A stretch of DNA of 64,000 nucleotides, from assembly GCA_003223295.1 (NCBI GenBank), contig QHYM01000103.1, forward strand, positions 6,581-70,580, in the 5' to 3' direction. Below are positions 17,829 to 49,171 of the stretch, one piece after another. Positions within the stretch are counted from its first letter, which is position 1; every line of letters begins with the position of its first letter. The notes under the pieces were generated by a model that had not been told where the DNA came from, made no database searches, and worked only from the letters and a program-made list of their open reading frames with translations. The translations under genes were made by a program, and so were the position numbers. The stretch comes from Acidobacteriota bacterium. Its GTDB lineage: Bacteria > Acidobacteriota > Terriglobia > Acidiferrales > UBA7541.

Positions 17829-17972
17829 ATGGCAAAGAGCAAAACCGAAGATATAAACGAAGCAGCATTCCGCGTGGTCAGAGAGTCCACTTTAGAGCCT
17901 TCGAGCATGCCAAAGAAAAAGCCTACTAGGAGCCGCAAGAGAAAGGCCAAACGAATTACGAAATCAAGGTAA
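17829..17972 (+). CDS. small basic protein (47 aa), unknown function, transposon cargo
   Basis: MAKSKTEDINEAAFRVVRESTLEPSSMPKKKPTRSRKRKAKRITKSR with a Lys/Arg-rich tail. Its 3' end overlaps the Fic 3' end by 17 nt (convergent). Coding status is unproven. Confidence 0.3.
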   Translation: MAKSKTEDINEAAFRVVRESTLEPSSMPKKKPTRSRKRKAKRITKSR

Positions 17973-19101
17973 CGCCTTTTTGGAAGGGATCAGGTATACC
18001 TTTCGGTTCTGATCCGTGTATCTTCACAGCTATTGCCCTAATTTCCTCAGAAGCTCTATAAATTCGTCCTCTCCGTTCTCCTGTTGGTACGAGCAGACCT
18101 GATTCTACAGCCGCTCGTAAATCTCGACTTGCAACAACTTTGCTTACTTCAGCAAAATGCCTGTAGGTGGCGCTGCGAACGCGAAATCCCATCGCCGCAT
18201 CAGCAACAGCCCCTATTACGCGGTCCGGCAAATTTTTCCTTGCTACTTCTCTTTCCAATTCATCCCACAATTTCTTGATGATCACTGAACGTCTCAGGAC
18301 AGTACCAGCTTGGCGATAATGAGCGGTGAGGTTGAATCGAATCCACGGACGAGTATCGCGTTGCGGATTCCACTTGCCACGCCCAACCTCAGCTAGAATG
18401 TCGTAATAGTCTTGAGTGTTTTTCCCCAAATATTCCTCGATTGAACAGAATGTGGGGTCAACAATTCCTTTGATTGCTAAAACGAGAGTCTGCAAACATC
18501 GAGCCATTCTGCCATTCCCATCGGAGAACGGATGGATCATCGTTAAATTGAGATGCGCCATAGCCGCTTTGACGAGAGTGTGTTCACTATCTCGTGGGCC
18601 GTTAAGGTACTCGACGAGTTCCGCTACGAGTTTCGCAACAATATCGGCGGGTGGGCCTTCGTAAACATTCTCTCCCTTCGATTCATCTCGGACATAGATC
18701 GGCCCTGGCCGCCAGTTCCCTGGATGTTTTGTAAGATCGTAGCTCAGCATCATGAAGTGGAGGCTTCTAAGGAAACCATCATTGAAAGCGAAGCTAGAGT
18801 CTTTGGAGAGTTGCAGAACGTAGGTCATAGCATTGCGATAGCCTGTTACTGCATGCCACGTCTCTTCCCCTGCCTCAAGTGGTTCGTCTCCTTCGGCGGC
18901 TGCTATAGCATCCTCGGCGGTTACCAGATAACCTTCAATGCTATTTGATCCCCGAATCGCGCGAGCAAAGGCGTTTCGCCGCAAAACACCCTCCCATCGC
19001 GAGGGTGTAGACAAGCTGTATTTAAGCGACTTATGCATCTTCGCAATGGCGGCAATGACTTCTAATTCTTCTTTTCTAAGCTCCACGCTCTTAAAGATCA
19101 T
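17956..19101 (-). CDS. Fic family protein (class II, N-terminal inhibitory helix; C-terminal wHTH-like region)
   Basis: 381 aa. Canonical Fic motif HPFSDGNGRMAR (nt 18499-18534) and inhibitory motif SNSIEG, which fits [ST]xxxE[GN] (nt 18931-18948). Confidence 0.9.
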   Translation of the reverse strand: MIFKSVELRKEELEVIAAIAKMHKSLKYSLSTPSRWEGVLRRNAFARAIRGSNSIEGYLVTAEDAIAAAEGDEPLEAGEETWHAVTGYRNAMTYVLQLSKDSSFAFNDGFLRSLHFMMLSYDLTKHPGNWRPGPIYVRDESKGENVYEGPPADIVAKLVAELVEYLNGPRDSEHTLVKAAMAHLNLTMIHPFSDGNGRMARCLQTLVLAIKGIVDPTFCSIEEYLGKNTQDYYDILAEVGRGKWNPQRDTRPWIRFNLTAHYRQAGTVLRRSVIIKKLWDELEREVARKNLPDRVIGAVADAAMGFRVRSATYRHFAEVSKVVASRDLRAAVESGLLVPTGERRGRIYRASEEIRAIAVKIHGSEPKGIPDPFQKGVTLIS

Positions 19102-19136
19102 GTTCCTTATCCTATAATCAGTGAACTTCCGTATAA

Positions 19137-19165
19137 ATAATAATTGACTTTTAGTCCCATGTCAA
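19137..19165 (-). promoter_or_regulatory. sigma70-like promoter candidate for fic
   Basis: On the minus strand: TTGACA (19165-19160), 17-nt spacer, TATTAT (19142-19137), about 35 nt upstream of the Fic ATG. Confidence 0.5.
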
Positions 19166-19171
19166 TATACT
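19144..19171 (+). promoter_or_regulatory. sigma70-like promoter candidate for the transposase
   Basis: TTGACT (19144-19149), 16-nt spacer, TATACT (19166-19171), then the GAGAGGAA SD and ATG at 19196. Confidence 0.5.
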
Positions 19172-19195
19172 ATTTTCACTGAGAGGAATAGACCA

Positions 19196-20047
19196 ATGAA
19201 CCGACTAAGAAGGGCAAAGCAGGCGCAAATCATCTCAGCCCTGGTTGAGGGAAATTCTCTACGCGCCACTTCGCGCATGACTGGCGTTTCAAAGGTGACG
19301 ATTCTTCGACTGCTGAAATCGCTCGGGGCAGCCTGCGCCGCGTATCAGGATAAGGTCCTACGAAACCTCACGTGTAAGCGGATTCAGTGCGATGAGATTT
19401 GGCAATTCTGCTATGCCAAAGACAAGAACGTGCCCGCCGATAAACAAGGGCAGTTTGGCTATGGGAATGTGTGGACCGGGGTTGCGCTCGATGCGGAAAC
19501 GAAATTGATTCCTAGCTGGCGCGTTGGGACACGCGGGGCGGCCACCGCCTATGAGTTCATGCACGATTTGGCTGGGCGTCTGGCGAATCGCGTACAACTG
19601 ACCACAGACGGCCATCGCGTGTATCTAGACGCGGTAGAAAGTGCATTCGGCTCAGAGATTGATTACGCGATGCTGGTCAAGCTGTATGGCGGAGATCGTG
19701 AGGAAAGCGAAGCTCGCTATAGTCCGGCAGAGTGCATCGGATGCCGTACGATCCCCATTTCTGGCAACCCGAAAGCAAAGCATATTTCTACTAGCTATGT
19801 TGAGCGCCAGAATCTCACAATGCGGATGTCTATGCGCCGATTCACGCGGCTCACCAATGCATTCTCAAAGAAAGTGGAGAATCACGAGCACGCGCTGGCC
19901 CTTCACTATATGCATTACAACTTCTGCCGGATTCACCAAACACTGCGCGTCAAACCAGCGATGGAAGCGGGAATTGCCGACCACGTTTGGAACATAGAAG
20001 AATTGGTGGGACTATTGGACAGAATGCAGACTGAGGCAGCGGCATGA
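19196..20047 (+). CDS. IS1 family DDE transposase (single-ORF type, N-terminal HTH)
   Basis: 283 aa. CDEIWQFCYAK ... WTGVALDAETKLIPSW ... LTTDGHRVY ... YVERQNLTMRMSMRRFTRLTNAFSKKVENHEHALALHYMHYNFCRIH is the conserved IS1-type C-terminal pattern (ERxNLTxR...R.T..FSK...H). Confidence 0.8.
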   Translation: MNRLRRAKQAQIISALVEGNSLRATSRMTGVSKVTILRLLKSLGAACAAYQDKVLRNLTCKRIQCDEIWQFCYAKDKNVPADKQGQFGYGNVWTGVALDAETKLIPSWRVGTRGAATAYEFMHDLAGRLANRVQLTTDGHRVYLDAVESAFGSEIDYAMLVKLYGGDREESEARYSPAECIGCRTIPISGNPKAKHISTSYVERQNLTMRMSMRRFTRLTNAFSKKVENHEHALALHYMHYNFCRIHQTLRVKPAMEAGIADHVWNIEELVGLLDRMQTEAAA

Positions 20048-23921: not shown

Positions 23922-25631
23922 TCATTGCTGGCCTGGCGATTCCGAGGAAGCCTGGTAGGGGATTAATTCCGTGTTGTCTTTGTCGGGCTCGACCAGCCAG
24001 ACCTGCCGATCATTGAAATAGGCCAACAGCTTTGCATTCTGCTCCGCATCGAGTTCGCGCGCCCAGAGCACCTTGGCGGAATCGATCTCCGCGCCGTTGT
24101 AGACCCATTCGTCGTGAATGTTGTGATCCTCCTCGTAGCGCACGAGGATGAGATGCTTTCCCGGAGCGTGTGATAGTTTTTCCTGGATGGCCGCGCGGCT
24201 GGGATCCCCTTGGCAAGTCCATTCCAATGGGTCGCATTGGTGGTTTGACACGCGGAAGGCGACTTCCGCCGCCAGGAGACAGACCGCAGCGCACGAAAGC
24301 GCAAGCCCGACGGGGCGGCGTGCAACACGCATGACCCGCAAATGACGGATCGCTTGGACAAGCAGCAAAAATATCACGCAAGTCGCCGGCGCGGCGTAGT
24401 GGGGGAAGGACCAAATGGAAGCCAGAAAGCCGGCCGTAACCAACACTAATGCGGTCAGAGGTAGCCGCATCTTGCGGTCGCGAAATGCGTAGGGAAGGGC
24501 AGGCAAGAGAAGTAGAGCCCCCCACCAGAAATACGTGCTGCCGCTTCGGGTCAATTTTTCCGCAGAAACTCTCCACACGTCTTGCCAAGAGTTTTGATAA
24601 TCCTCGCGCTCCCAACCATTGTAGAAATCTTCGAACTGCTGGTTGTGGTATTGCATGGGCGGCTTGGGATGGTCCCAGAGGAAGAGACCCATCGTGCGGT
24701 AGGTGCGCGAATGCAAAGCGTGGGGGAATAGCAACGCGTTTCCAGTGAGCCGCCAGTTGTAATAGCCCATGAATGCGATGGTCAACACCAAGACGGCCGC
24801 CAGCGGCGTGAGCACGCGCGCTATGCGAGTTCGCACGCTGGCCTTGGACTTAGTTTTCCCTGCAAGCCACCAGAGGAGCCAGCATCCCAGGGGTATGGAA
24901 AGGAGCAGACCTTCGTAAGGTCTCGTGTTGGCGAGAATCGCGAGTCCGAGCGCGAGCAGAAAAGCATCGGGCGTCCTGGCATAGCGAACAATGCGGGGCA
25001 TCGCCCCCAGCACCAGTGCGCCACCTGTGGCCGCCAGTGCTCCGCCCCAATAGCTATTCATCCAATAGCTCGCGATGGCGAACTTCAGCGCCACAAGAAC
25101 TGCGCCTAGCAACGCCCACCTCGCAGGTAGCCAGGCTTGGAGCATCCACAGGATTGCAGCGCACATCGCGCCAACGCTCAAAACCACGCCGATCCACGGG
25201 AGCCCGAGCAACTCGCCGAGCGCGAGCACGGCGCCCTGGCCGGGCGGATATTTTGAGCAATACGTCGGAAACCAATTGATGTGAAACGATTCGAAGCTCA
25301 TGCACATCGGGTGCGTAGGATTCGTGAGGCGACCATGAGCCAGCGTGTCGCCGAGTAACAAGTAACTGTATTCGTCGTGGATACCGGGAACGGGGACGGG
25401 AAGCAGCGGCAGCACGGCGAGTCGAACACCGATTATAAAGAAGAATAAGAGCCAGATAGCGAGCACTTTTCGGCGGGCCAGCCGCGCAAATGGCCACAAA
25501 ATCGCGCGCAGCAGGTTCCCGCTCCATCGAGGCGCGAGCACGGCAACGGAGATAAACGCGAGCACGACACCGATGAACGCTAAAATTTCGCCAGAAAACT
25601 GCAGCATCGTGCTGCCGCTCGAGGGACTCAT
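23922..25631 (-). CDS. polytopic membrane protein, probable GT-C fold glycosyltransferase (ArnT/PMT-like)
   Basis: 569 aa with more than 10 TM helices. An acidic motif in the first loop (GIHDEYSYLL) and a soluble C-terminal domain. The family assignment is tentative. Confidence 0.45.
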   Translation of the reverse strand: MSPSSGSTMLQFSGEILAFIGVVLAFISVAVLAPRWSGNLLRAILWPFARLARRKVLAIWLLFFFIIGVRLAVLPLLPVPVPGIHDEYSYLLLGDTLAHGRLTNPTHPMCMSFESFHINWFPTYCSKYPPGQGAVLALGELLGLPWIGVVLSVGAMCAAILWMLQAWLPARWALLGAVLVALKFAIASYWMNSYWGGALAATGGALVLGAMPRIVRYARTPDAFLLALGLAILANTRPYEGLLLSIPLGCWLLWWLAGKTKSKASVRTRIARVLTPLAAVLVLTIAFMGYYNWRLTGNALLFPHALHSRTYRTMGLFLWDHPKPPMQYHNQQFEDFYNGWEREDYQNSWQDVWRVSAEKLTRSGSTYFWWGALLLLPALPYAFRDRKMRLPLTALVLVTAGFLASIWSFPHYAAPATCVIFLLLVQAIRHLRVMRVARRPVGLALSCAAVCLLAAEVAFRVSNHQCDPLEWTCQGDPSRAAIQEKLSHAPGKHLILVRYEEDHNIHDEWVYNGAEIDSAKVLWARELDAEQNAKLLAYFNDRQVWLVEPDKDNTELIPYQASSESPGQQ

Positions 25632-25726: not shown

Positions 25727-26962
25727 TTATCTCTCAATCTCGATTTCGGTGGATCCGTCGGCGCCAGCGGACGGTTCGCCGGTTCGGCTTTCTTCAAGAA
25801 AGTCGGCCATCTCCAGGCGCAAATTCCCTGCATTGGTCGAGTAGGACATGCCCGCCTCGAAATCGACGATTCCGGCCCGAATGAGCTTTTCAATTTCTCC
25901 GTCGAAATACTGCATCCCCTCAGTCGTGCCGTCGCGCATGGCATCCAGAAGCGTTTTGCCTTCGCCTTCCCCTTTTTCGATATATTCGCGCGTGCGCATC
26001 GTGGATTTCAGAATCTCCACCGCAGCCACACGTCCGCTTGCGCCCTTTTTGGGAAGCAAGCGCTGGGAAATGATAAAGCGAAACGCTTTCGCCAGACGCG
26101 TGCGAATGGCTTGCTGATCGCTCAGCGGAAAAACTCCCACGATGCGCTCGATGGTCTTGGAAGCATCAATCGTGTGCAGCGTGGACATCACCAGGTGGCC
26201 GGTTTCCGAAGCTTCCAATGCAATCTCGATGGTTTCCCTGTCGCGCATCTCGCCGACGAGAATGACCTTGGGGGCCTGCCGCAAAGCCGCGCGCAATGCC
26301 AGCGCAAAGCTGGGCGTGTCCGAATGCAGCTCGCGCTGGTGGATCGTTGCTTTCTTGTGGCGGTGCAGGAATTCGATGGGATCCTCGATGGTGAGGATGT
26401 GATAGGACTTCTCCGCGTTCATCTTGTCCAGAATGGCCGCGAGCGTGGAGGATTTTCCCGATCCGGTTGGGCCGGTCACCAGGACGATGCCGTTCCGCAG
26501 ATCCACAATTTCGGCCAAGGTCGCGGGAAGATGCAAATCCTCGAATCCGGGGATTTTGTCCGGGATAACGCGCATCACGATGGCGCAGCTCCCGCGTTGC
26601 TTGAAAATATTCACACGAAAGCGCGCTACTCCCGTAAGCCCGTACGAGAGGTCCGCTGATCCTTCTTGCTCCAGTTTGCGAATGGGCGTTTCGTTTTTGC
26701 CCATGATGTCGCTGGCAATGAGGTCCGTGTCTTGCGCAGTGAGACACTCGAGCCCCTTGTACTTCAATTCGACGAGTTGACCGCTTACTTCGATTTGCGG
26801 CGCGCGGCCGGGCGAGAAAATCAGGTCACTGACATGCGGGCTCGCCTTCAGCATGGCTGTAACGAGCTGGGCCGTATGAATTTTCCTTTGTGGCGCAGGA
26901 ACCGATGACGGCGCAGGCGCTTGATCAGTTTGAGATGGGATCGTTTGCGTAGGTGTTCCCAT
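25727..26962 (-). CDS. pilT: type IV pilus retraction ATPase PilT family
   Basis: Walker A LVTGPTGSGKSSTLAA, HILTIEDPIEFLH, Asp box, GHLVMSTLHT. About 35 aa of N-terminal P/S/Q-rich extension and an acidic C-terminal tail. Confidence 0.9.
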   Translation of the reverse strand: MGTPTQTIPSQTDQAPAPSSVPAPQRKIHTAQLVTAMLKASPHVSDLIFSPGRAPQIEVSGQLVELKYKGLECLTAQDTDLIASDIMGKNETPIRKLEQEGSADLSYGLTGVARFRVNIFKQRGSCAIVMRVIPDKIPGFEDLHLPATLAEIVDLRNGIVLVTGPTGSGKSSTLAAILDKMNAEKSYHILTIEDPIEFLHRHKKATIHQRELHSDTPSFALALRAALRQAPKVILVGEMRDRETIEIALEASETGHLVMSTLHTIDASKTIERIVGVFPLSDQQAIRTRLAKAFRFIISQRLLPKKGASGRVAAVEILKSTMRTREYIEKGEGEGKTLLDAMRDGTTEGMQYFDGEIEKLIRAGIVDFEAGMSYSTNAGNLRLEMADFLEESRTGEPSAGADGSTEIEIER

Positions 26963-35661: not shown

Positions 35662-38586
35662 ATGAGCGACGCGAATCAAGTCCGAATCAACGAGCTGGCG
35701 CGCGAACTAGAGGTCAAAGCCAAGGCGATCATTGACCTTCTGTCTGGCTTTGGTGTCACCGAAAAGAAAACGCACTCGAGCTCGATTCCCGCCGACGTCG
35801 CGGAGAAGGTCCGCAAAAAGATTCAGGGAGTTGCGGAAGCCGAAGCGCAGGCGGAAGCGGCTGCGAAGGCTGAAAAAGAGGCCAAGGAAGCTGCAGCGAA
35901 GGCTGCGCGGATGCGGCCTCCCGCGGCTGCTGCGCCTCCGCCGCAAGCTCGGGTGGCCCCTGCGGCTGCGGCCGCGAAACCGGCCGCGCCGACCGCACCT
36001 GCTGCCGCAGCCATGCCTGCGGCTCCGCCAACGCATGCTGCTCCCGCACCTGCTCCGACTGCCGCGCCGGGCGCTCCGAAAATTGTTCCTAAAGCGCCAG
36101 CTCCGGCAGCGCCTACAAGTGCGCCAGCCGCCACGAAGCCCTCCGCACCACCGGCTCCGACACCAATTCGTCCCGCAGCGCCGTCCGTGCAGCCTGGAAG
36201 TGCACCGGCTCGGCCTGCAGCCACAAGTCCGGCGAGCACACAGCCTTCTGCAGCACGGCCTGCGGCTGCGGCGCCTGGTACTTCGCCCGCGCGCCCCGGC
36301 GCACCCGCGAGGCCCGGTGGACCCGTGCGTCCAGCGGCACCAATCCGCCCTACTGGAAATCGTGGTCCTCTGCCGACAGGAAATCGCGGACCATTGCCGG
36401 ACATATCGCGCGAGCGCCCGAGTGGCCCGCGTCCCGGACAGCCGATTCGTCCGCAGCAACAAGGCCAGGGCAGACCAATGGGACGGCCGGGCGGTCCCGG
36501 CGGAGACTCATCGAGGCCTTTTGAGCACCGGCGAGGGCCGATGCCGACCGGCACACGTCCCGGGCCGCGCGCGCCCGGACGTCCGGGAATGTTGCCGCCG
36601 CTCCCGGACAAAATGCCGCCGAAGGCGGAACCCGGAAAGCCGCTTTACGCGCGCAAGACTCCAACGCGCCAGCGCCCGGCGATTGACAAGCGGGAGATCG
36701 AGGGAGAGCGCAAGCTGCACCCGACGCGCCTGCGACAGGGGGCGGGCCGCGGTGCGGCTGCTGCTGCGGTTATTGCACCTCCGGAACCGCGTCCGCCGCG
36801 CGAAGTAACCATCACCGAAGGCATCACCATTCGCGAACTCGCGGAAAAGCTGGACGTGCGCGCAAAGGATCTTCTGAAGACGCTGCTGGACCGCGGCGTT
36901 TTTGCAAGCATTAACCAAGCCTTGGATGTGCCAACGGCGACAACGCTGGCGGAATCGTTCAGCGGAGTCGTGAGCGTCGTTTCGCTCGAAGAAGAAATGG
37001 TGCTGGAGGTTGCGAAGGAAGAAACGAAAGAGAGTCTGAAGCCGCGGCCTCCTGTCGTGACCGTGATGGGACACGTGGACCACGGGAAAACAAGCCTGCT
37101 GGATGCGATTCGCGAAGCGGACGTGGCGGCGGGAGAAGCGGGCGGAATCACGCAGCACATCGGCGCTTACAAAGTGGTGGTCAACGATCGCAGCGTGGTT
37201 TTTGTGGATACGCCCGGCCACGAAGCTTTCACGCGGATGCGTTCGCGCGGCGCGAAAGTCACGGACATCGTGGTGCTGGTGGTGGCTGCCGATGATGGCG
37301 TCATGCCGCAAACCAAGGAAGCCATCGACCACGCAAAAGCTGCGAATGTGCCCATCGTTGTGGCCGTCAACAAGATTGACAAACCGGAAGCGCAGCCGGA
37401 GCGCGTGAAGCGCCAGTTGTCGGACCTAGGCCTGATGCCTGCGGAGTGGGGCGGAGACACGGAATTCGTGGAAGTTTCGGCGAAGCAGAAAAAAGGCATC
37501 GACAAGCTGCTGGAAATCATTTTGCTGGTCGCGGATTTGCGCGAATTGAAGGCGAACCCGGATGCACCGGCGAGCGGCACCGTGCTCGAATCGCGCGTGG
37601 ACAAAGGGCGCGGGCCGGTGGCCACGGTGCTGGTTCAGAACGGCACTCTTAATGCAGGCGACTTTTTTATCTGCGGCTCGGTGTTCGGCAAAGTGCGCGC
37701 GATGTTCGACGATCGCGGGCGCACGGTGAAAGACGCGCCACCATCCACGCCCGTCGAAGTGTTGGGATTGCAAGGCGTTCCGGAAGCGGGAGACCACTTC
37801 CAGGTGACGGACGAAGCCAAGGCCCGCCATATCGTCGAATACCGCCAGAGTAAGCAACGCGACGCGGCCATGGCGCGCAGCAGCGGTGGGCGCATCACGC
37901 TCGACCAGTTACACGAACAACTCAAGGCGGGCGAAGTCAAAGAGCTGCCGATTGTTATCAAGGCAGACGTGCAGGGATCTGTGGAAGTGCTGAGCGAGAT
38001 GCTGCCGAAGCTTTCCACTGACCAGGTAAAGCTGAAGATCATCGGCTCGGGCGTGGGCGCGGTAACGGAAAACGATGTGTTGCTGGCGTCCGCTTCGGGA
38101 GCGATTGTCATCGCCTTCGGCGTGCGGCCGGACCGCAAGGCAGCGGACCTGGCGCAGCAGGAACACGTGGACATCCGCACGCACAACATCATTTACGAGG
38201 TCTCGGATGAGATTAAGAAGGCCATGGAAGGCCTGCTCGAACCGGTCATCACGGAGACCTACCTGGGCCGCGCGGAAGTTCGGAACACGTTCCGCGTGAA
38301 GGGCGCGGGCACGGTAGCGGGCTGCTACGTGGTCGATGGCATTCTAAAACGCGACGCGCAGGTGCGCGTGGTCCGCGATGGCACAGTGATTTACACTTCG
38401 AAGCTGAGCTCGCTGAAGCGCTTCAAGGATGACGCCAGCGAAGTGCGCACGGGCTTTGAATGCGGCGCAGGCGTGGCCAACTTCAACGACATTAAGGTAG
38501 GCGACGTCCTGGAATGCTTCAGCGTCACCAAAATGAGCGCCGCGGAAGCCGCCGGCCAGGCCAGCGCGCCTTCCGGCAAGAAATAA
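35662..38586 (+). CDS. infB: translation initiation factor IF-2
   Basis: 974 aa. A conserved N-terminus ([21 protein letters not shown]), a long Ala/Pro-rich region, a G domain ([28 protein letters not shown]) and the C-terminal IF2 domains. Confidence 0.97.
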
Positions 38587-40489: not shown

Positions 40490-43400
40490 TTACAGCTGTT
40501 GTGGCTGTGGTTGCTGTGGCTGCTGTTGAGGCGGCGGCTGAAGCGGCGGTTGAGGTTGTGGTTGTTGAGGCGGTGGCGGCGGTCCCGGAGTCCCCCGGAA
40601 TCCTGGGCCAGCGGCACCGCGGCCGACATCGCCGCGACCTGCGTAGATCGTCCGTGTTAGATGATCCGCGAGCCGCAATCTGCGGGGAGTGACCACAATC
40701 AACAACTCGGTGTCTTGCAGGGATTGGCTTTTTGAGCTGAACGCATATCGTATGCCGGGGGTCTCCCCGAACCCCGGCAAGCCAACGATCGAGCGAGTCT
40801 CTTCTTTGTCCATCATCCCGCTAAGGAGCGTCGGTTCGTTTTCTTTCACGCGCACGGTTTGCGACAGCGTACGGTTCGAAAGAATGGGAATGCCGTTGAC
40901 GTTGGTGCCGGAAAGCGCGCGGATTTCGAATTCCAGCTGCAGAGTCACTTCGCTATTGGGATGGAGCGTCGGTGTGGCCTTAATCTTCAAGCCCAGATCC
41001 ACATATTCGGAGGCGGGGTAAGGCTGCTGTGCGACTCCAGGAGCCACGCCGTTGGCAAACAGACTTGCCGGACTCAAGACCACAGTGATATCGCCGGCCG
41101 CTCCCGACACATTGTTGGTGATGGCCACGTCCGGAAATACGCCGGTCGCGAAGGTGCCGGTGACGATTGCGGTTGGCGTGGAACCGGCAGGTCCAGCGGG
41201 AGGTTCGAAGGCCAAGCTGAATAGCCCTTTCGAGAGGCCCACAAAGACCCGAAAGGTGTTGGCTCCTCCGTTCGTCACGGCAAGATCCGGGATCCCATCT
41301 TGATTGAAGTCCGCGATGGCAACGCCGGTTGGGGATGCTGCGGTTTGCAGCGGTGAACCTGTTGCCGCCGCAAAAGTGGCGTCCCCATTGTTCAACAACA
41401 CGCTGACGGTGTTATCGGTTTGGTTCACGACCGCAAGGTCCGGTTTGGAGTCCCCGTTCAAATCACCTGAGGCAATCGCCACCGGCCCATTGCCAACGCC
41501 TGATGAAATCGGCGAACCGGTGGCTTCGGTAAACGTGCCGTCGCCATTACCCAAGAGAATCGTCACGTTGTTGGTCGTCTGATTTGCGATGGCCAGGTCC
41601 TGGTTCCCATCGGAATTGAAATCGTTCACCGCCATCGCCACGGGACCTCGCTCGGTTGCAGAGATCGGCGTGAAAGTGAATTGTTTTTGCGCAGTCAGAG
41701 GTGTGGCGCCGGAGTCGGTCACCGTGACAGTGAATGTGAAACTTGGCGGCGTTGTCGTGGTGGATGTCGGGGTTCCGGTGATTTCGCCCGTCGTAGGGCT
41801 CAAACTCAAGCCAGTAGGCAGTGAACCAGCGGAAACGCTCCAGGCAAAAGGAGTCGTTCCTCCCGTAACGGTCAATATCTGGTCGTAGGGGGTTCCGATG
41901 CTTCCGTTGGGGAGCGAAGCCTTGGAGATCGCGAAAGTGGGAGCTGCAGCATTGATGACCATGCTGAGCGCGGTTGTGACGGAATTCGGAGGAGTGGCGG
42001 AATCGGTTACCTTCACGGCGATGGGCGAAGTTCCCGCCGCCGTCGGCGTGCCGGTGATGGCCCCAGTGCTGGGACTTAAAGTCAGGCCCGCAGGGAGGGT
42101 CCCCGTCGCAAGGCTCCAGGTCACCGCACCAGTTCCCCCCGCGGATTGCAGAGTAGCGCTGTAGGGTGCATTCAAAACGCCGTCGGGCAGAGACGTGGTG
42201 CTAATGGCAAGTTGCTGTGCGAGAAAGAAAGGAGAGTTTTTCGCGGCGGTAAATTTGCCTGTGCCGTCGCCAAGAAAAATGGAAATCGAATCATCAGCTT
42301 CGTTGGCTACGGCGAAATCCTGTTTTCCGTCGCCGTTGAAGTCCCCCGTGGCAATCGCAGTGGGATTGAAGCCTACAGGAATGGCGGCCGGTTTCTGAAA
42401 TGTGCCGTCACAATTGCTGATGAGCACGTTCACTACGTTCGCGAGGGGATCGCTGGCGACTAAGTCGTGGCATCCGCTGGCAGTGAATGTGGCCGAAGCG
42501 ATTCCAGGATGGGTTGCCGGGGCTGCGGCGCGCGCAATGCCAAGCGAAATGGGCGAACCCGTGGCCTGGGCAAATGTCCCTTGACTGGAGTTTTGGTTCA
42601 CCAGAATTGTGACCGAGTTATCCACTTCGTTGACGGCAGCCAAGTCCAAGGCACCGTTATTCAGAAAATCAGCGGCCACCAGCGCGACAGGTCCAACGCC
42701 CGCCGGAAACGAAGTGCTTGGGAAGGGGTTGCTCGCCCCGCCCGGATTTGGCGTAAAGGTAGAGCTGCCCAAACTGCCGGAGAGCAAGGAAAGCGTGACG
42801 GGGAATCGCTGGCCCACGAAGAAAGTAGCGGGCTTTCCGTCCTGCGCGCGCAAGAGGACCTGGCGGCCGCTCTGCACCAGCGAGAGCGCGTCGGAGAAGT
42901 CCGCGGCGACTGCAGGGAGAGTCAGGAGAAAAGTGGACTGGCCCCCGCCAATGGCCACGACTGGAGGAATCAGCGAACTGAGCGACGTCGCCCCGCCGCT
43001 CGCGCCACTTCCAAAGATTCCCGCAAGCAGCGTTTCGAGCGCCGACAGATTGCTCGCCTGGGTCACTAGGCTGATCAAGTTGGGGGGAATACTGAATAAT
43101 CTTAGCTTGGTTGGAGGTTCGATACCCAGCTTCCTTGCCGTGTTGCGGTCCACCTCCAGCAGCTCAATTTCGAGCATCAACTCTCCGCGAGCTCTTTCAA
43201 TCTGCTGAATCAGCGCGCCGGTGAGTGCCAGCCGCTCCGGAGTATCGCGCATCGTGATGCTATGCGCATTCGAATCGAGGTCGATGTGTGTTGAGGCAGT
43301 GATATCGCGCACGATGCGAAGGACTTCGGTGGCATCCTCGGAACTAATTGCGGAAGAGAGAGGAAAAGTCTGCTTTGCCTCCAAATCATATTGCCTGCGT

Positions 43401-44122
43401 TTTTCCGGCGCGTCCGCGGCGACAAACATCAGAGTGGCATTCAGCGGGCGCCAGAAGGTTCCTGTTTCCGCGGCGAGGACAGTAGCCGCGTTCTTGAAAT
43501 CCACGTCGTTGATGTTCAGGCGTACGTTTTTGACGATCAGGTCGGGATCGAAGGTGGCCCGGATGCCAAAAATACTCGCCAATTGCTCGTATACGGTCTT
43601 GGTGTCTCCCCGCAGGTCGAGGTTGCGCTTGCCAGCTTGCGGTTTCAATCGGGGCAGGCCGGAAATCTCTGGCGCAGCTTGCGGCCCGGCTTCAGCTTCC
43701 ATGCTTTTTATTTGGCGCAATCGCTCCAGGACATTGGCGTTTGCGGGGTCGATTGCCAGCGCCGCGGCAAGATCTTCTGCCGCCTGGTCAAACCGGCCGG
43801 CTAACGCATCGCGTTCCGCCGCATCCGCGTACGTGCGGACCAGTTTCGAGCGCTGAGCTTCGGCGCGGGCGGCGAAGTGGATGTCCTGCGGGGCATAGCG
43901 CGCGGCTTCCTGGAAGGCCGCCAGCGCTTCCTCAAGACGGCCGGCCGCCTCGGCTTTCTCTCCCTGCTCGGCGGCCTTGCGCGCGCGCTTGGGATCGGGC
44001 CGCACGCGCTGGGGAGCCGTTTGGGGATAGCCTATTGTGAATGAAAGGAAATCGGACCAAAACAGTCCGGTTGACGCATGCCGCCAAAATGCGGTAAACT
44101 CGAATTTGTAGTTGCAAATCAT
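40490..44122 (-). CDS. secretin-family outer-membrane channel protein with TPR-like N-terminus, internal FG-GAP/VCBS propeller plus Ig-like insert, and a P/Q-rich tail
   Basis: 1210 aa. Secretin signatures are split between aa 312-445 (ELMLEIELLEVDRNTARKLGI ... ALSLVQSGRQVLLRAQDGKPATFFVGQRFPV) and aa 1039-1150 (YVDLGLKIKATPTLHPNSEVTLQLEFEIRALSG..NGIPILSNRTLSQTVRVKENEPTLLSGMM...VGLPGFGETPGIRYAF...ELLIVVTPRRL). In between lie 7 FG-GAP-like repeats (e.g. DFNGDGKQDFAVAN, DFNSDGNQDLAIAN, DLNGDSKPDLAVVN, DFNQDGIPDLAVTN) and two LP.G....PY...L...GG..P..W....G.LP.GL.L....G.I.GTP Ig-like modules. Confidence 0.85.
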   Translation of the reverse strand: MICNYKFEFTAFWRHASTGLFWSDFLSFTIGYPQTAPQRVRPDPKRARKAAEQGEKAEAAGRLEEALAAFQEAARYAPQDIHFAARAEAQRSKLVRTYADAAERDALAGRFDQAAEDLAAALAIDPANANVLERLRQIKSMEAEAGPQAAPEISGLPRLKPQAGKRNLDLRGDTKTVYEQLASIFGIRATFDPDLIVKNVRLNINDVDFKNAATVLAAETGTFWRPLNATLMFVAADAPEKRRQYDLEAKQTFPLSSAISSEDATEVLRIVRDITASTHIDLDSNAHSITMRDTPERLALTGALIQQIERARGELMLEIELLEVDRNTARKLGIEPPTKLRLFSIPPNLISLVTQASNLSALETLLAGIFGSGASGGATSLSSLIPPVVAIGGGQSTFLLTLPAVAADFSDALSLVQSGRQVLLRAQDGKPATFFVGQRFPVTLSLLSGSLGSSTFTPNPGGASNPFPSTSFPAGVGPVALVAADFLNNGALDLAAVNEVDNSVTILVNQNSSQGTFAQATGSPISLGIARAAAPATHPGIASATFTASGCHDLVASDPLANVVNVLISNCDGTFQKPAAIPVGFNPTAIATGDFNGDGKQDFAVANEADDSISIFLGDGTGKFTAAKNSPFFLAQQLAISTTSLPDGVLNAPYSATLQSAGGTGAVTWSLATGTLPAGLTLSPSTGAITGTPTAAGTSPIAVKVTDSATPPNSVTTALSMVINAAAPTFAISKASLPNGSIGTPYDQILTVTGGTTPFAWSVSAGSLPTGLSLSPTTGEITGTPTSTTTTPPSFTFTVTVTDSGATPLTAQKQFTFTPISATERGPVAMAVNDFNSDGNQDLAIANQTTNNVTILLGNGDGTFTEATGSPISSGVGNGPVAIASGDLNGDSKPDLAVVNQTDNTVSVLLNNGDATFAAATGSPLQTAASPTGVAIADFNQDGIPDLAVTNGGANTFRVFVGLSKGLFSLAFEPPAGPAGSTPTAIVTGTFATGVFPDVAITNNVSGAAGDITVVLSPASLFANGVAPGVAQQPYPASEYVDLGLKIKATPTLHPNSEVTLQLEFEIRALSGTNVNGIPILSNRTLSQTVRVKENEPTLLSGMMDKEETRSIVGLPGFGETPGIRYAFSSKSQSLQDTELLIVVTPRRLRLADHLTRTIYAGRGDVGRGAAGPGFRGTPGPPPPPQQPQPQPPLQPPPQQQPQQPQPQQL

Positions 44123-44130
44123 TTACAACT
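44110..44130. promoter_or_regulatory. 21-bp near-perfect palindrome, candidate metalloregulator operator
   Basis: AGTTGCAAAT-C-ATTTACAACT (10-1-10, one mismatch). It ends 9 nt before the GTG of the FTR1-like gene and is centred on the annotated ATG of the divergent secretin ORF. Confidence 0.5.
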
Positions 44131-44139
44131 GGATATCCC

Positions 44140-45402
44140 GTGCTCTCAGCTTTTCTTATTGCCCTTCGTGAAGGGGTGGAAGCGGCGCTCGTCGTCGGCA
44201 TCATCCTGGTTTATCTCTCTCGCACCGCCCGCAGCCACCTGACGCGCTTCGTCTGGTATGGCGTTGCGGCGGCCGCTGCTCTGAGCCTGGCTGTGGCGGT
44301 GGGGCTGGAGCGCTGGCGCATCAGCGAAGACGGCTTCGAGGGGCTGATGCTCCTGGTGGCCTCGGTCTTCGTTGTTACGATGATTGTATGGATGAATCGA
44401 GTTGCGCGCCACCTGAGAAAAGAGATTGAAGAGAAAGTGGAGTCCTACGCCGAGCGAACCGGAAAAGCCGCCGGTTGGGGCGTTTTTCTTTTTGTGTTTC
44501 TGCTGGTGTTGCGCGAGGGAGCGGAACTGGCGCTGATCCTGCGCGCCGTGGAGCTTTCGACCGAGGGTTTGCAGACCTGGATTGGGACGATTGCCGGGAT
44601 TGCGGCCGCAGTCGCGGTGGGATTGTTCTTTTTCAAGGGCACGCTGCGCATCCCGCTAGGGCGGTTCTTCGCAGCCACGAGTGTCATCTTGATGCTGGTG
44701 GCGTTCCAATTGGGGCTTAGGGGTTTGCACGAATTGAGTGAAGCGCGCTGGCTGCCTTCCAGCAAGGGCGAGATGGCTATTCTTGGCCCCATCGTGAGCA
44801 ACGAGCTTTTCTTTTTTGTATTCATTTTTGGCGCGGCGATGTTGCTGATTTTGCGCGAATGGCAGGCGGCTTCCCATGCCAAAGCCGCGAAAGACTCGCT
44901 GAACGACGCGGAAAGGCGCCTGCTGGAATCGCAGAACCGGCGCCAGGGCCGCTGGATGATTGCCGCGGCCACTGCTTCTCTAACCGTGATTCTCGTGCTG
45001 ACAGCTGATTTCATTTACGCGCGAGCAAATTCCGCGCCGCCAACGGCTCAGCCGATTGATCCCGTTGGCAACATCGTGCGCGTGCCCGTTAGCGAAGTGC
45101 AGGATGGAACCATGCACCTTTTCACCGTGAATGCGGGCAGCCAGTCCTTGCGGTTCATGGTCATCAAGAAGCCGAATGGCTGGGGCGTCGCGCTGGATGC
45201 CTGCCGGATTTGCGGCGCGGAAGGCTATCGCCAGGACGGGCAAAATGTGATTTGCCGGCATTGCGCTTCCGCGATTTATATTCCCTCGATTGGCGATCAG
45301 GGAGGCTGCAATCCCATCGGCGTGCCCGCGCACGTCGATGGAGGAGACATTGTGATCGACATTTCCGCCCTCGCTCAGGCGTCCAAGGAGATTCCCCAGT
45401 AA
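44140..45402 (+). CDS. FTR1-family iron permease fused to a C-terminal DUF2318-like Cys-rich domain
   Basis: Two RExxE motifs (LREGVEAAL near the N-terminus, LREGAELAL in TM4). After a further TM comes the domain ...FMVIKKPNGWGVALDACRICGAEGYRQDGQNVICRHCASAIYIPSIGDQGGCNPIGVP with CxxC...CxxC. Confidence 0.8.
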   Translation: MLSAFLIALREGVEAALVVGIILVYLSRTARSHLTRFVWYGVAAAAALSLAVAVGLERWRISEDGFEGLMLLVASVFVVTMIVWMNRVARHLRKEIEEKVESYAERTGKAAGWGVFLFVFLLVLREGAELALILRAVELSTEGLQTWIGTIAGIAAAVAVGLFFFKGTLRIPLGRFFAATSVILMLVAFQLGLRGLHELSEARWLPSSKGEMAILGPIVSNELFFFVFIFGAAMLLILREWQAASHAKAAKDSLNDAERRLLESQNRRQGRWMIAAATASLTVILVLTADFIYARANSAPPTAQPIDPVGNIVRVPVSEVQDGTMHLFTVNAGSQSLRFMVIKKPNGWGVALDACRICGAEGYRQDGQNVICRHCASAIYIPSIGDQGGCNPIGVPAHVDGGDIVIDISALAQASKEIPQ

Positions 45403-45441
45403 GGCGCCACTTGACGCCTTGCGTGCGCGACGACTCATTCC

Positions 45442-46758
45442 ATGTTTCTACGACTCGTGGCCGATTCCTTTGGGCGGCGCCCGCGGCACAAGCTGCTGAC
45501 CGGCGCGGCGCTGGCTCTGGGTATGGGTGTGGCCACGGCGGCGCTCAGCGTGGCGCTGGACGTTGGTGACCGCCTGGCAAAGGAATTCCGCAGCCTGGGC
45601 GCGAATCTGCTGGTTACGCCGCAGGCCGATTCGCTAGCGCTCGAAATCGGCGGCGTGGACTACCGGCCCGTGAACGCGGGAGCTTATCTGCCGGAAGCGG
45701 ATCTGCCAAAACTCAAAACGATTTTCTGGCACAACAACATCGTGGGTTTTGCGCCGATACTCGAAGTCCGGGCCATGGCTTTGCCGTTTGCACAGGAGGG
45801 CGGCCAGTATCGGGCCGGAGAATGGATCGAGGGCGTTCCTACCATTGGAACCTGGGCCGACCATTCCGTCCCTCTCCCTGAGGGCGGAGAATTTCAGACA
45901 GGAGTTGCCAAGACAAACCCCTGGTGGCAAATCGACGGCCGATGGTTTTCCGACAATGGGATGGAATGCGTAGTCGGTGTGGCGTTCGCACAAAAAAATC
46001 ACATTAAGATCGGCGATGCAATTTCATTGGCAGTCGGCCGCGTCACCAAGACTCCTTCTCCGTTCAAAGTCGTAGGAATCCTCAATTCTGGCGATCCGGA
46101 GGATGAGTCCATTGTGGTCCCGCTCTCCAAAGCCCAATTCCTCGCACACGAACCAGGGCAATACCGCAAACTTTATGTCAGTGCGCTGACGAAGCCGGAA
46201 GATGCTTTTGCAAAGCGCGACCCGAAGACGTTTACGCCGGCGGAGTACGATCGCTGGTTCTGTACGCCCTACATTTCGTCAATCGCGTTTCAAATTCAGC
46301 AGGAATTGCCAGGGACGGACGTGCGAGTCATCCGGCGCATTGCAGAAGGCGAAGGGCGGATTCTTGGCCGCGTGCAAATGCTGCTTTGGCTGGTCACCGC
46401 TGCGGCCATGCTGGCCGCGGCGCTGGCGGTGGGAGCCTCATCAGCGGCTTCCGTCATCGAGCGACAGGTGGAGATCGGCTTGATGAAGGCTCTGGGCGCG
46501 GGCTCCCGCATGGTGGGTTTCTTGCTGGCCGCGGAGCAATTGCTGCTCGCGGTTGTGGGCGGAGGAGTGGGTTACGCGCTGGGAATCGTTCTGGCGCGCC
46601 TGCTCGGCGAAAAGATTTTCGGGGCCGCGCCGGAGCCGACGCTGCTGGTCTTTTTGGTCGTAATCGGGCTTGCGGCTATCGTGACGCTACTGGGCAGCGC
46701 CATTCCGTTGCGTCGCGCATCGCGCATTGAGCCGGCGCCTATCCTGCGAGGCGAATGA
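45442..46758 (+). CDS. ABC transporter permease, FtsX/MacB-like
   Basis: 438 aa: an N-terminal TM, a large periplasmic domain and a C-terminal FtsX 3-TM bundle (EIGLMKALGAGSRMV...). Confidence 0.85.
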   Translation: MFLRLVADSFGRRPRHKLLTGAALALGMGVATAALSVALDVGDRLAKEFRSLGANLLVTPQADSLALEIGGVDYRPVNAGAYLPEADLPKLKTIFWHNNIVGFAPILEVRAMALPFAQEGGQYRAGEWIEGVPTIGTWADHSVPLPEGGEFQTGVAKTNPWWQIDGRWFSDNGMECVVGVAFAQKNHIKIGDAISLAVGRVTKTPSPFKVVGILNSGDPEDESIVVPLSKAQFLAHEPGQYRKLYVSALTKPEDAFAKRDPKTFTPAEYDRWFCTPYISSIAFQIQQELPGTDVRVIRRIAEGEGRILGRVQMLLWLVTAAAMLAAALAVGASSAASVIERQVEIGLMKALGAGSRMVGFLLAAEQLLLAVVGGGVGYALGIVLARLLGEKIFGAAPEPTLLVFLVVIGLAAIVTLLGSAIPLRRASRIEPAPILRGE

Positions 46759-47963
46759 TGACGGAACTTGGCGCACTCAATCGAGCGATGTTCTGGCGCA
46801 TCCTTCGGCGTTTGCTGGGAGCCAATCGCGGACGGTTGTTCGTGATGCTGCTGGCGCTCGGCGCCGGCGCCGCCGTTACGGCCGCGCTGCTCAATCTGCA
46901 AGTGGATGCGAAGCGCCGCCTCACTACTGAATTCCGAGCCTTTGGGGCTAACCTAATCGTTGCCCCAAAATCCTCTGGGGCTACCCCAGCTTCTGACTCT
47001 CTCCTGAATCAATCGCTTCTTAGGAGTTTGCCTTCGGAATTTCAGGGCCACTCCGTGACTTCAGTTCCGTCGCTGTACCTGATTGCCGAACTTTCGGCCC
47101 CTTATTCCGAATCGAAATCGTCTGTGCCCGTAGTGGTTTCAGGTACTGAACTAGAGAAACTCCCGCGCATCTTTCCTACCTGGGACTTCCAAGCCTCTCC
47201 ATTCCCGATGCACAACAACTCTGTCGCTCCGGTGAAGGCAAATGTCGTCTGTTTGGTCGGAGCGAAGGTCGCTTCCACATTTCACCTAGTCCCATTCGAC
47301 GTAATCGAGCTGATGAACGGGACGGAGAAGGTAAGCTGCGCCGTAGCCGACATCATAAAGACCGGCAGCGAAGAAGACAGCCAGGTGTTCATGGACCTTG
47401 CAGGTGCTCAGCGTCTTGCAATGCTCTCGAGCAGGATAAGCCTCATACAAATCAGCGTTGAAGGTTCCCCACCTGTCATTCAACAGTTCCAGGGCTTCCT
47501 TTCGCAGAAAATTCTTGACGCTGAAGTGCGTCCTATCCGCCAATTCACTGAGAGCGAAGCGAAGATCTACAACAGCATCAGCGGATTGCTCACGGCCACG
47601 GTGGGCATCGTGTTGCTGCTGACGGCGCTGTGCGTGATGGCGGCGATGACCAACGTGGCCATTGAGCGCAAGATGGATGTCGGCCTGATGAAGGCGATTG
47701 GGGGCGCGACGCGGCGCGTGGTGCGGCTCTTCCTGGCTGAAGCGGCGCTACTGGGTTTAGCGGGCGGTTTGATCGGTGCGGCGGCAGGCCTTGTGCTGTC
47801 CATCGGTTTGGGCAAAGCAGTTTTTGGAGTGGCGGCGCGGCCGCGGCTGATTGTGTATCCTTTAACTGTGGGTCTGACGATGCTGGTGGCGATCCTGAGC
47901 GCTTTTCCGCTGCGGCGGCTGGCGAGCATCCGCCCGGCATCCGTGTTCCGAGGTGAAGCGTGA
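46755..47963 (+). CDS. ABC transporter permease, FtsX/MacB-like (second copy)
   Basis: 402 aa with the same architecture (DVGLMKAIGGATRRV...). ATGA overlap with the upstream gene. Confidence 0.85.
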   Translation: MMTELGALNRAMFWRILRRLLGANRGRLFVMLLALGAGAAVTAALLNLQVDAKRRLTTEFRAFGANLIVAPKSSGATPASDSLLNQSLLRSLPSEFQGHSVTSVPSLYLIAELSAPYSESKSSVPVVVSGTELEKLPRIFPTWDFQASPFPMHNNSVAPVKANVVCLVGAKVASTFHLVPFDVIELMNGTEKVSCAVADIIKTGSEEDSQVFMDLAGAQRLAMLSSRISLIQISVEGSPPVIQQFQGFLSQKILDAEVRPIRQFTESEAKIYNSISGLLTATVGIVLLLTALCVMAAMTNVAIERKMDVGLMKAIGGATRRVVRLFLAEAALLGLAGGLIGAAAGLVLSIGLGKAVFGVAARPRLIVYPLTVGLTMLVAILSAFPLRRLASIRPASVFRGEA

Positions 47964-49171
47964 GCGTGGTCGCTCCCATTTCCGTGCAGCCGCGAACGAC
48001 GGTGCAGCAGGTTGTCATTGACAACCTTGTCAAGCAGTATGGAGCACTGCGCGCCCTCAACGGCGTCAGTTTTGCGGTGAATAGCGGCGAATGGGTCGCG
48101 CTCATGGGGCCTTCCGGCTCGGGGAAAACCACGCTCATCAACATTCTGGGCGGATTGGACACGCTGAGTTCCGGTCACCTGGTTGTTGATGGCGTTGACC
48201 TCTCCAAGTTGGGCGAGAGCGAATTGGTCCGCTACCGCGCAGAAAAAGTGGGCTTCGTTTTTCAGCAATTTCATCTCGTCCCGTATCTCACGGCGCTCGA
48301 AAACGTGATGCTGGCGCAGTATTTTCACAGTGTCACCGATGAAAAAGAAGCCGAAGTCGCGCTAAAGCGCGTGGGCCTCGGCGATCGCCTGACGCACCTG
48401 CCCGCCCAGCTTTCCGGCGGCGAACAGCAGCGCGTGGCGATCGCGCGCGCGCTGATCAATCAGCCAAAGCTTATTCTCGCCGACGAGCCCACCGGCAATC
48501 TCGACGAGGCTAACGAAAAGATCGTCATCGAGATTTTCCGTGAGCTGCACAATGCGGGGCATACCATTCTGATGGTCACCCATGACCCCGACATCGCCCG
48601 CCAAGCCGACCGCCGCATCGAACTCGCACACGGTCATTTGCATTTCGACTCCGCGGTGCACGGACCGGGCCAGCCGCTGAATTGCCCGCTGGTGGACACA
48701 CCGGACTGCTGCAAGTCCGTTTCGACCGACGATGAAATTCGCTTTGACCACCTACTCGAGCAAATTTGGGTTTGCGGCGAGGAAGGGAAGCCCGCTCAGG
48801 TTGAGCGCTTGCGTGCCGCCGGGGCCTCAGGGAAACTTTCAACCGTGCCTGAGGAAACCGCCGCAAAGGTTCTTTCGCGCATGGCGGAGCTGCGTTTGGT
48901 CGCGTTGCAAAACGGGGAAGTGCAACTCACTCCGGTAGGAAGCCAGCGCGCACGTGACGTGGTGCGCCGCCATCGCCTGGCCGAGCGTCTGTTCAAGGAT
49001 ACTTTTTCCGTTGATGAAACCGAGGCGCACACGCAGGCCTGCAAATTCGAGCACATCATCAGCCCGGAACTGGATGCGCGCATCTGCACGTTCCTCGGCC
49101 ACCCGAAAACCTGCCCGCACGGCAATCCTATTCCTCCGGGCGACTGCTGCGAAGGAAAGGGAAAGTGGTGA
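47960..49171 (+). CDS. ABC transporter ATP-binding protein fused to a DtxR/MntR-type metal-sensor module
   Basis: aa 1-230 is a MacB/LolD-type NBD ([41 protein letters not shown]). aa ~258-392 aligns with Dtx[12 protein letters not shown]... wHTH-like, then [33 protein letters not shown]...CPHGNPIP. Confidence 0.85.

Follow-up and report, generated by a model that had tools for sequence, protein, structure and literature searches.

A 64,000-nucleotide (nt) stretch of contig QHYM01000103.1 from an Acidobacteriota bacterium (positions 6,581 to 70,580 of the forward strand; hereafter the window) carries an uninterrupted reading frame for a 1,210-amino-acid (aa) protein in which, as we conclude with high confidence from both its architecture and the insertion point, one secretin domain is split by a large insert at the tip of its central-gate hairpin. 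The insert is a conserved and, in structural models, folded seven-blade FG-GAP propeller, itself divided 3+4 by two He_PIG domains of the immunoglobulin (Ig)-like type. The window translation is identical to the public protein P0271 and, judging from its relatives, the gene belongs to a genuine, conserved family of predicted outer-membrane secretins of the uncultured order Candidatus (Ca.) Acidoferrales. Its parts are listed below, with structural remarks taken from an AlphaFold2 (AF2) model and its predicted local distance difference test (pLDDT) scores.

40490..44122, minus strand: whole open reading frame, 1,210 aa plus stop, reading frame uninterrupted
44024..44122, minus strand: translated 5′ region, spurious N-terminal 33 codons; deletion junction at ~44027/44028
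43712..43990, minus strand: TPR region, aa 45-137 (Pfam; five helices in the AF2 model)
43148..43627, minus strand: two N-type (ring-building, Secretin_N-like) α/β domains, aa ~166-325 (AF2 pLDDT 70-90)
42785..43147, minus strand: secretin domain part 1, aa 326-446, ending FFVG(437)QRFPV with pivot glycine 1
42719..42796, minus strand: retained N-terminal arm of the gate hairpin and conserved Gly/Ser/Pro linker, aa 443-468
42209..42718, minus strand: FG-GAP propeller blades 1-3, aa 469-638, with Ca2+ loop DFNGDGKQD at aa 594 and Cys551/Cys571
41657..42208, minus strand: tandem pair of He_PIG (cadherin-like Ig) domains, aa 639-822, nested between propeller blades 3 and 4
41078..41656, minus strand: FG-GAP propeller blades 4-7, aa 823-1015, with Ca2+ loops at aa 834, 887 and 938
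41006..41077, minus strand: C-terminal linker and C-terminal gate-hairpin arm (retained), aa 1016-1039 (...QQPYPASE)
40673..41017, minus strand: secretin domain part 2, aa 1036-1150, starting YVDLG(1044)LKIKA with pivot glycine 2
40493..40672, minus strand: Pro/Gln/Gly-rich C-terminal tail, aa 1151-1210

Results

A single secretin domain divided at the central gate

In the native protein, Pfam recognizes the Secretin domain (PF00263) only from position 52 to 166 of the 169-position profile (aa 1038-1147, 88 bits vs. a gathering cutoff of 27.5), and the piece that precedes the insert, taken alone, gives no Secretin match in Pfam, its 37 residues being too short to detect. When aa 461-1029 were excised in silico and the resulting protein was submitted to Pfam and aligned with GspD, the match became a single stretch covering profile positions 16-166 at 99.7 bits, and residues 401-587 of Vibrio cholerae GspD (5WQ8) aligned across the excision junction without a break. 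These results contradict the reading in which the region ahead of the insert lies outside the secretin domain, and they bear out the first-pass annotation of the window, made from the sequence alone, which had described a secretin domain interrupted by about 590 aa: hidden Markov models (HMMs) for the blocks on either side of the insert lie 589 aa apart (aa 447-1035). Its further description of two halves holds in that the two parts are complementary but not in that they would be equal, as the split falls near profile position 51 of 169, i.e., after one third of the domain and before the remaining two thirds. Upstream, Secretin_N is matched weakly in the window protein (aa 262-312, 20-22 bits vs. 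a cutoff of 28.2) and above cutoff in the homologue P0122 (31.8 bits).

The central gate of type II secretion system (T2SS) secretins is the loop between two conserved pivot glycines, residues 466-496 in XcpD; the gate-loop tips of all subunits converge on the channel axis, and opening is thought to occur by an upward flip against the barrel wall (PMC10550240). Alignment of the family profile with XcpD places the insert exactly between the motifs 'VGxxxP' and 'xDxGxxLK', and the GspD and XcpD alignments thereby agree with the placement in the central-gate hairpin that had been proposed at first pass. Both pivots are present, G437 within GKPATFFVGQRFPV (aa 429-442) and G1044 within YVDLGLKIKATPTL (aa 1040-1053), with 606 residues between them vs. 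~30 in XcpD. Alignment with insert-free relatives further demonstrates that both arms of the gate hairpin are retained, with FPVTLSLLSGSL matched to FPIILASFTSIF in the first pair and QQPYPASEYVDLG matched to PPIPAVQYEDLG in the second, from which it follows that the insert enters at the hairpin tip. It is flanked by linkers of ~20 residues, the N-terminal one of which, at a column conservation of 0.88, ranks with the best-conserved stretches of the whole sequence.

The insert is a propeller with nested Ig-like domains

FG-GAP_3 is found by Pfam in seven stretches of the native protein (E 1.3e-36) and He_PIG (PF05345) in two (E 5e-25, 88.1 bits vs. a cutoff of 24). In the AF2 monomer model, which was built with 74 homologues, the insert reaches a pLDDT of ~85-95 and resolves into three four-stranded blades, two Ig-like domains and four further blades, such that profile matches and modeled secondary structure concur with the 3+4 composition read from the sequence at the outset. 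Four blades carry canonical DxNxDGxxD loops (aa 594, 834, 887 and 938), from which the propeller is predicted to bind Ca2+. In fold searches the propeller retrieves CRTAC1 and the Ig pair retrieves cadherin-like modules of SraP and protocadherins; the whole model, submitted to Foldseek, yields per-domain matches only (cadherin/SraP, CRTAC1) with low template-modeling scores. An NCBIfam match to XAC2610_fam was dismissed, as it covers merely a short FG-GAP repeat motif. Column conservation is 0.78-0.85 in the propeller vs. 0.86-0.88 in the secretin core, the most conserved part of the protein. We also considered hypervariability of the Ig region as a sign of surface exposure and found it weak, with a conservation of 0.79 vs. 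0.85 in the propeller.

A conserved family with variable gate inserts

Protein searches across NCBI, JGI, ENA and Logan assemblies recovered more than 100 full-length homologues at 55-98% identity, which fall into two size classes: ~1,200 aa with He_PIG and ~1,000 aa without it. Among the species-representative genomes scanned, 152 have a relative confirmed by tblastn, and each of the 80 best loci spans essentially the full protein. All carriers are metagenome-assembled genomes (MAGs), almost all of them labeled Acidobacteriota, Ca. Acidoferrum/Acidiferrum/Acidiferrales or 'gp2', and some of the carrier contigs reach 6.6 Mb. Recurrence of the design across many independent assemblies excludes misassembly at the insert borders, a concern that the first-pass annotation had raised. 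Public annotations of these proteins are generic ('FG-GAP-like repeat-containing protein', 'CpaC', 'GspD/PulD', 'TPR repeat protein'), and our literature searches turned up no account of a secretin into which an FG-GAP, VCBS or propeller module is inserted, nor of orphan secretins in the Acidoferrales lineage, in keeping with the initial impression that the architecture is not an already described class. One MAG (CAZGFL01) contains both a He_PIG version at 70% identity (L012) and a propeller-only version at 57% (L032); these are probably not true paralogues, as they occupy the same syntenic slot and a mixed two-strain bin is more likely.

Queried exhaustively with 321 N-terminal residues (aa 140-460), HMMER recovered insert-bearing and insert-free relatives alike; the first-pass annotation had suggested looking for orthologues with and without the insert. 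Measured between the block HMMs, their gate loops fall into the following classes:

Insert-free class: 11-49 aa, mode 23 (33 representatives)
Propeller-only class: 368-461 aa
Propeller plus Ig class: 537-589 aa, window protein included
Largest class: ~680 aa

The design accordingly occurs with the propeller only, with two He_PIG domains added, or with three Big_2 domains added. The largest inserts are those of P0124 (1,328 aa), where three Big_2 domains stand in place of He_PIG within ~680 aa, and of P0134 (1,336 aa), likewise ~680 aa, with ~300 extra residues that have no Pfam match. Because P0124 has three Big_2 domains instead of He_PIG, the accessory Ig modules were, going by these domain assignments, evidently swapped or added independently between lineages, a pattern commonly seen in exposed binding proteins.

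A neighbor-joining tree of the secretin core alone, computed without support values, groups all 32 insert-bearing representatives in one clade and, as judged from core sequences, shows a single origin of the insert. The insert-free P0180 is the immediate sister of this clade, and another insert-free protein, P0155, is nested inside it, by either secondary loss or tree error. P0180 (603 aa, 23-aa gate loop) lies in a chromosomal slot identical to that of the window gene, FTR1/FtrD-FtsX-FtsX-ABC followed by the secretin and then truB-rbfA-DUF503, and is therefore its positional orthologue without the insert. Its AF2 model has a mean pLDDT of 81.6, with the barrel at 80-95, and matches solved secretins from every class (GspD, BfpB, PilQ, InvG and pIV) in Foldseek (E 1e-16 to 1e-11); going by this model, the ancestral protein is a canonical secretin. 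Gain of the insert was accompanied by a change at the C terminus: insert-bearing proteins have tails of median 65 aa, and up to 157, vs. a median of 17 aa in insert-free ones, and the long tails, rich in Pro/Gly/Gln, correlate in length with the presence of the insert. Such a correlated gain suggests that periplasmic contacts changed too.

Comparison with characterized secretins and propellers

Domain content, barrel motifs and the modeled fold of its orthologue make the window protein a member of the secretin superfamily. It nevertheless lacks two features typical of characterized secretins, namely the short gate hairpin and, in the window and the flanks of related loci, the association with a T2SS, type IV pilus (T4P), Tad, type III secretion system (T3SS) or phage machine. 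Its best sequence and profile matches are the T2SS secretins GspD, XcpD and PulD (PDB 5WQ8, 5WLN, 6HCG), with which it shares the barrel motifs, the two pivot glycines and an N3-like domain before the barrel; unlike them, it holds a propeller and Ig domains between its widely separated pivots, has a TPR region in place of N0 and a P/Q-rich tail in place of the S-domain, and stands outside any gsp operon. Neither an N0 nor an AMIN domain was found in the window protein. Assignment to the T2SS, T4P, Tad or T3SS class gave no clear result, as the NCBIfam equivalogs all remain far below their cutoffs, including T2SS GspD (TIGR02517, 65.4 bits vs. 351) and T4P PilQ (TIGR02515, 54.7 bits vs. 284). 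On PDB entries the family profile ranks GspD/XcpD (1.6e-29) ahead of PilQ (4.8e-25) and RcpA (8odn, 1.9e-22), with little separating the three. Tad RcpA/CpaC was therefore set aside as a candidate: RcpA ranks below GspD and PilQ, tad genes are absent nearby, and the JGI 'CpaC' labels are automated.

The closest relatives by overall plan are the insert-free Acidobacteriota TPR-secretins (P0180, P0155, P0211), which share the signal peptide, TPR region, N-domain and secretin domain and are likewise orphans, with 25-41% full-length identity to P0180 and 39-42% identity to the window protein in the N-terminal part; they differ in their gate loop of 11-49 aa and short C-terminal tail. The nearest precedent for a second, outer closure is the cap gate of Vibrio-type GspD, which is, however, a short β-hairpin, sited in a separate outer-barrel loop, and not a folded domain of 400-680 aa in the central-gate loop. 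This cap gate is an optional extra closure on the extracellular side, an elaboration of the secretin domain that adds watertightness (PMC10550240).

The insert itself resembles integrin-α-type FG-GAP propellers (integrin α, CRTAC1, bacterial FG-GAP/VCBS proteins) in having seven blades and, as in integrin α with its αI domain, in carrying a domain between blades along with DxNxDGxxD loops in four of them. It differs from this type in that the propeller is itself inserted into a membrane β-barrel protein and that the nested module is an Ig pair and not a vWA domain. A functional analogy, and nothing closer, can be drawn with type V and inverse autotransporters, which combine an outer-membrane β-barrel and a displayed passenger or adhesin in one polypeptide; these differ in their unrelated barrel fold, terminal passenger, and monomeric or trimeric, as opposed to 12-15-meric, barrel.

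Genomic context

On one side of the gene is the rimP-nusA-infB-DUF503-rbfA-truB operon and on the other a divergent operon for iron uptake; two features of the latter side are relevant here:

44140..49171, plus strand: divergent operon of an FTR1/FtrD fusion, two FtsX/MacB-type permeases and an ABC ATPase-Fe_dep_repr_C fusion
44110..44130, unstranded: near-palindrome of 21 bp, AGTTGTAAATGATTTGCAACT, conserved; occupies the FTR1-proximal part of the divergent promoter region

The first gene of the operon (44140-45402, plus strand) fuses an FTR1 iron permease to an FtrD-like membrane iron-sulfur domain and is followed by the two FtsX/MacB_PCD permeases. The last (47960-49171, plus strand) fuses an ABC ATPase to Fe_dep_repr_C, the metal-binding and dimerization domain of the DtxR type, with no obvious DNA-binding domain; this unusual fusion is kept in related loci and suggests, on domain content, direct metal sensing by the ABC transporter. 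The operon resembles the Ftr1-P19/FetMP-associated clusters with an FtsX-type ABC system, and no P19 or cupredoxin gene was seen with it in the window.

Among 83 related loci, the FTR1 operon is the immediate divergent neighbor in all 78 with enough flank. On the other side many loci have truB shifted 1-7 kb away, and in L013 and L014 the flank lacks it. P0155, on a 4-kb contig (L084), directly adjoins a GBBH-like_N gene, with the four-gene FTR1-ABC operon missing between them; in this single case, insert and FTR1 operon could have been lost jointly. Conserved in 74 loci, the near-palindrome lies ~10 nt ahead of the FTR1 start and is probably a metal-repressor operator, as predicted from its sequence and position. 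Also conserved are -35/-10-like elements of FTR1 and an inverted repeat, CCGGAC-N7-GTCCG. Since the palindrome is on the FTR1 side and the secretin appears to have a -10-like element of its own, separate from the palindrome, a shared iron-regulated promoter could not be established, and co-regulation of the two from this promoter arrangement is possible.

No T2SS, T4P, Tad, T3SS or filamentous-phage machine genes occur within ±10 kb of the 83 related loci, and in the 64-kb window there are none except a lone PilT/T2SSE-type ATPase, so that the gene is indeed an orphan, as first described. This ATPase, which had been noted as a pilT some 14 kb away, is 411 aa long (25727-26962, minus strand), lies 13.5 kb from the 3′ end of the secretin gene with no other pilus genes around it, and adjoins a 569-aa open reading frame without a Pfam match (23922-25631, minus strand).

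Several further observations concern the remainder of the window. The infB gene (35662-38586, plus strand) encodes a very long Ala/Pro-rich N-terminal region of low complexity, with a local GC content of 0.70-0.72 (especially at 36000-36750) vs. ~0.59 elsewhere, and gene callers truncate it variously in related contigs, to 664-952 aa. A Fic/DOC-family gene adjoins an IS1-type transposase fragment at 17956-20047; the surroundings are otherwise housekeeping genes, and this patch has the look of a small mobile or accessory element. Finally, a 586-aa protein (14302-16062, plus strand) has a C-terminal TonB_C as its sole domain and is unusually long for TonB.

A 5′ deletion in the window allele

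DNA alignment of the window with a 98%-identical locus (L001) reveals a clean 104-nt deletion in the window copy, with TCC microhomology at both edges. Lost with it are 15 nt of leader, the start ATG and the entire Sec signal peptide, while the -10-like element is kept. The apparent start of the window reading frame is an ATG inside the 21-bp near-palindrome of the putative FTR1 operator. Intact homologues all begin with a Sec signal peptide (e.g., MGAIHQALSLILSSLLVFSQVAAQS), which is present in ~100 of them and is kept by all eight other proteins of the P0271 90% cluster that have a complete N terminus; a search of all reading frames of the window found none that encodes one. The reading frame is otherwise intact, and the window copy is either a recently inactivated allele or the product of a local assembly error. 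Going by the alignment, it is probably nonfunctional unless the assembly is wrong at the deletion. The first-pass annotation had overlooked the lost signal peptide, as well as the conserved FTR1 neighbor.

Discussion

The overall reading that we favor, and to which we give about an even chance, is that the propellers form a ligand-binding cap or crown in place of the gate. An intact allele would comprise a Sec signal peptide, the TPR region, two N-type ring domains, the secretin β-barrel domain and the P/Q-rich tail. Formation of a secretin multimer is likely, while an extracellular orientation of the modules is evenly poised. The first-pass annotation had placed 12-15 propellers at or in the channel, a placement that depends on an assumed stoichiometry and orientation. 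Estimates from known secretins put the lumen at ~70-80 Å in width and a seven-blade propeller at ~50-60 Å across and 30 Å thick; with these dimensions the axis has no room for the tips of 12-15 subunits to converge, and the combined volume of 12-15 modules of 45-65 kDa each is estimated to exceed that of the lumen or vestibule. Given that the modules cannot fit at the axis, the arms and linkers must hold them outside the gate plane, and they would have the reach to do this, at ~27-31 residues per pivot and up to ~80 Å when extended. Most likely the modules would sit above the gate plane, with the arms flipped up as in open secretins. We favor a crown or cap over the pore mouth because known gates swing upward and because modules of the He_PIG, Big_2 and FG-GAP kinds typify extracellular binding proteins. 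Such a multimer would carry a ring of propellers whose cap takes over the sealing function of the lost gate and presents a multivalent, Ca2+-dependent binding surface, and the protein would then act as a stand-alone pore, adhesin or capture device and not as an outlet for a neighboring pilus or T2SS.

The secretin may, in addition, act with the adjoining FTR1/FtrD-FtsX-ABC iron-uptake operon, although we consider a functional link to iron uptake unlikely. In its most complete form, the proposal would describe a self-contained device in which 12-15 Ca2+-binding propellers cap a ~70 Å pore, capture an external ligand and feed it to the FTR1/FtrD-FtsX-ABC importer; the ligand could plausibly be mineral- or organic-bound iron, but the scheme taken as a whole is very doubtful.

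Several points weigh against the capping reading and its extension to iron. A ring of 12-15 propellers would, by geometric estimate, leave a central hole in a ~70 Å pore unless the propellers were staggered, and we know of no precedent among secretins for surface export of fifteen folded 60 kDa modules. In the AF2 monomer of the insert-bearing protein, the secretin core itself is modeled at a pLDDT below 50, and the Ig region, only somewhat less conserved than the propeller, displays no clear sign of diversifying selection. Furthermore, the whole ±10 kb block is syntenic throughout the lineage, which makes the adjacency of FTR1 weak evidence for a functional link, as it may reflect common descent; more distant insert-free relatives are located elsewhere than in the FTR1 slot. 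Partner machinery could also be encoded elsewhere in the genome.

This last point leads to the alternative of a classical exit port with an enlarged gate, whose T2SS, type IV pilus or Tad machine would be encoded at another locus; the modules would then be periplasmic or luminal and form an oversized plug or substrate-docking chamber that is pushed aside during passage. We regard it as a real but minority possibility: the family conserves the secretin core, the pivot glycines and the N-type domains, T2SS GspD/XcpD proteins are the best sequence matches, secretin genes can be unlinked to their machines, and a PilT/T2SSE-type ATPase does lie 13.5 kb away. Such a role is harder to reconcile with the lack of any N0 or AMIN match, with equivalog scores far short of cutoff (GspD, 65 vs. 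351 bits; PilQ, 55 vs. 284 bits), and with the failure to find partner genes in the 64 kb or in the flanks of the 83 loci; the estimated module volume would not fit the lumen or vestibule, and accessory He_PIG and Big_2 domains are, again, typical of extracellular proteins. Were the pore instead permanently blocked, the protein would be an outer-membrane anchor only, a nonconducting multimeric scaffold displaying a propeller-Ig adhesin. The impossibility of normal gate geometry with the insert, the orphan context and the long P/Q-rich tails acquired together with the insert, which suggest changed periplasmic interactions, all accord with such a scaffold, but the pivot glycines and gate arms are nearly invariant, which suggests that hinge motion still matters, and the secretin core is the most conserved part of all. 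We therefore consider it quite unlikely. An artefact or dead gene, whether a chimeric assembly, a fusion of neighboring genes or a decaying pseudogene, is hardly credible and is effectively refuted at the family level: the window allele does lack its start codon and signal peptide, and every carrier genome is a MAG, but more than 100 proteins, sharing 43-98% identity and drawn from independent assemblies with contigs of up to 6.6 Mb, have the architecture without interruption, insert conservation is comparable to that of the core, and the signal peptide is retained by the other eight proteins of the 90% cluster whose N terminus is complete.

The literature describes Ca. Acidoferrales as acidophilic bacteria that are abundant, have not been cultured and putatively cycle iron (PMC7980381). 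The propeller-bearing secretin is thus found in bacteria that are abundant in soil and proposed to cycle iron, in a gene that stands back to back with an iron-uptake operon. Secretins rank with the most thoroughly studied outer-membrane channels of bacteria. The solved ones all close with short hairpins that meet on the axis, a mechanism that a folded tip module of 400-680 residues cannot use, and this propeller-gate lineage offers a test of current ideas on the sealing, assembly and cargo of giant outer-membrane pores. The hairpin tip also marks a place where large insertions are naturally tolerated in an outer-membrane scaffold of 12-15 subunits, a property with possible use in surface display. 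If the protein does act as a capture device, it would be the first secretin for uptake or capture instead of export and the first with a folded-domain gate. More broadly, a whole clade of orphan TPR-secretins without a recognizable partner machine implies that secretin function may extend beyond that of export ports.

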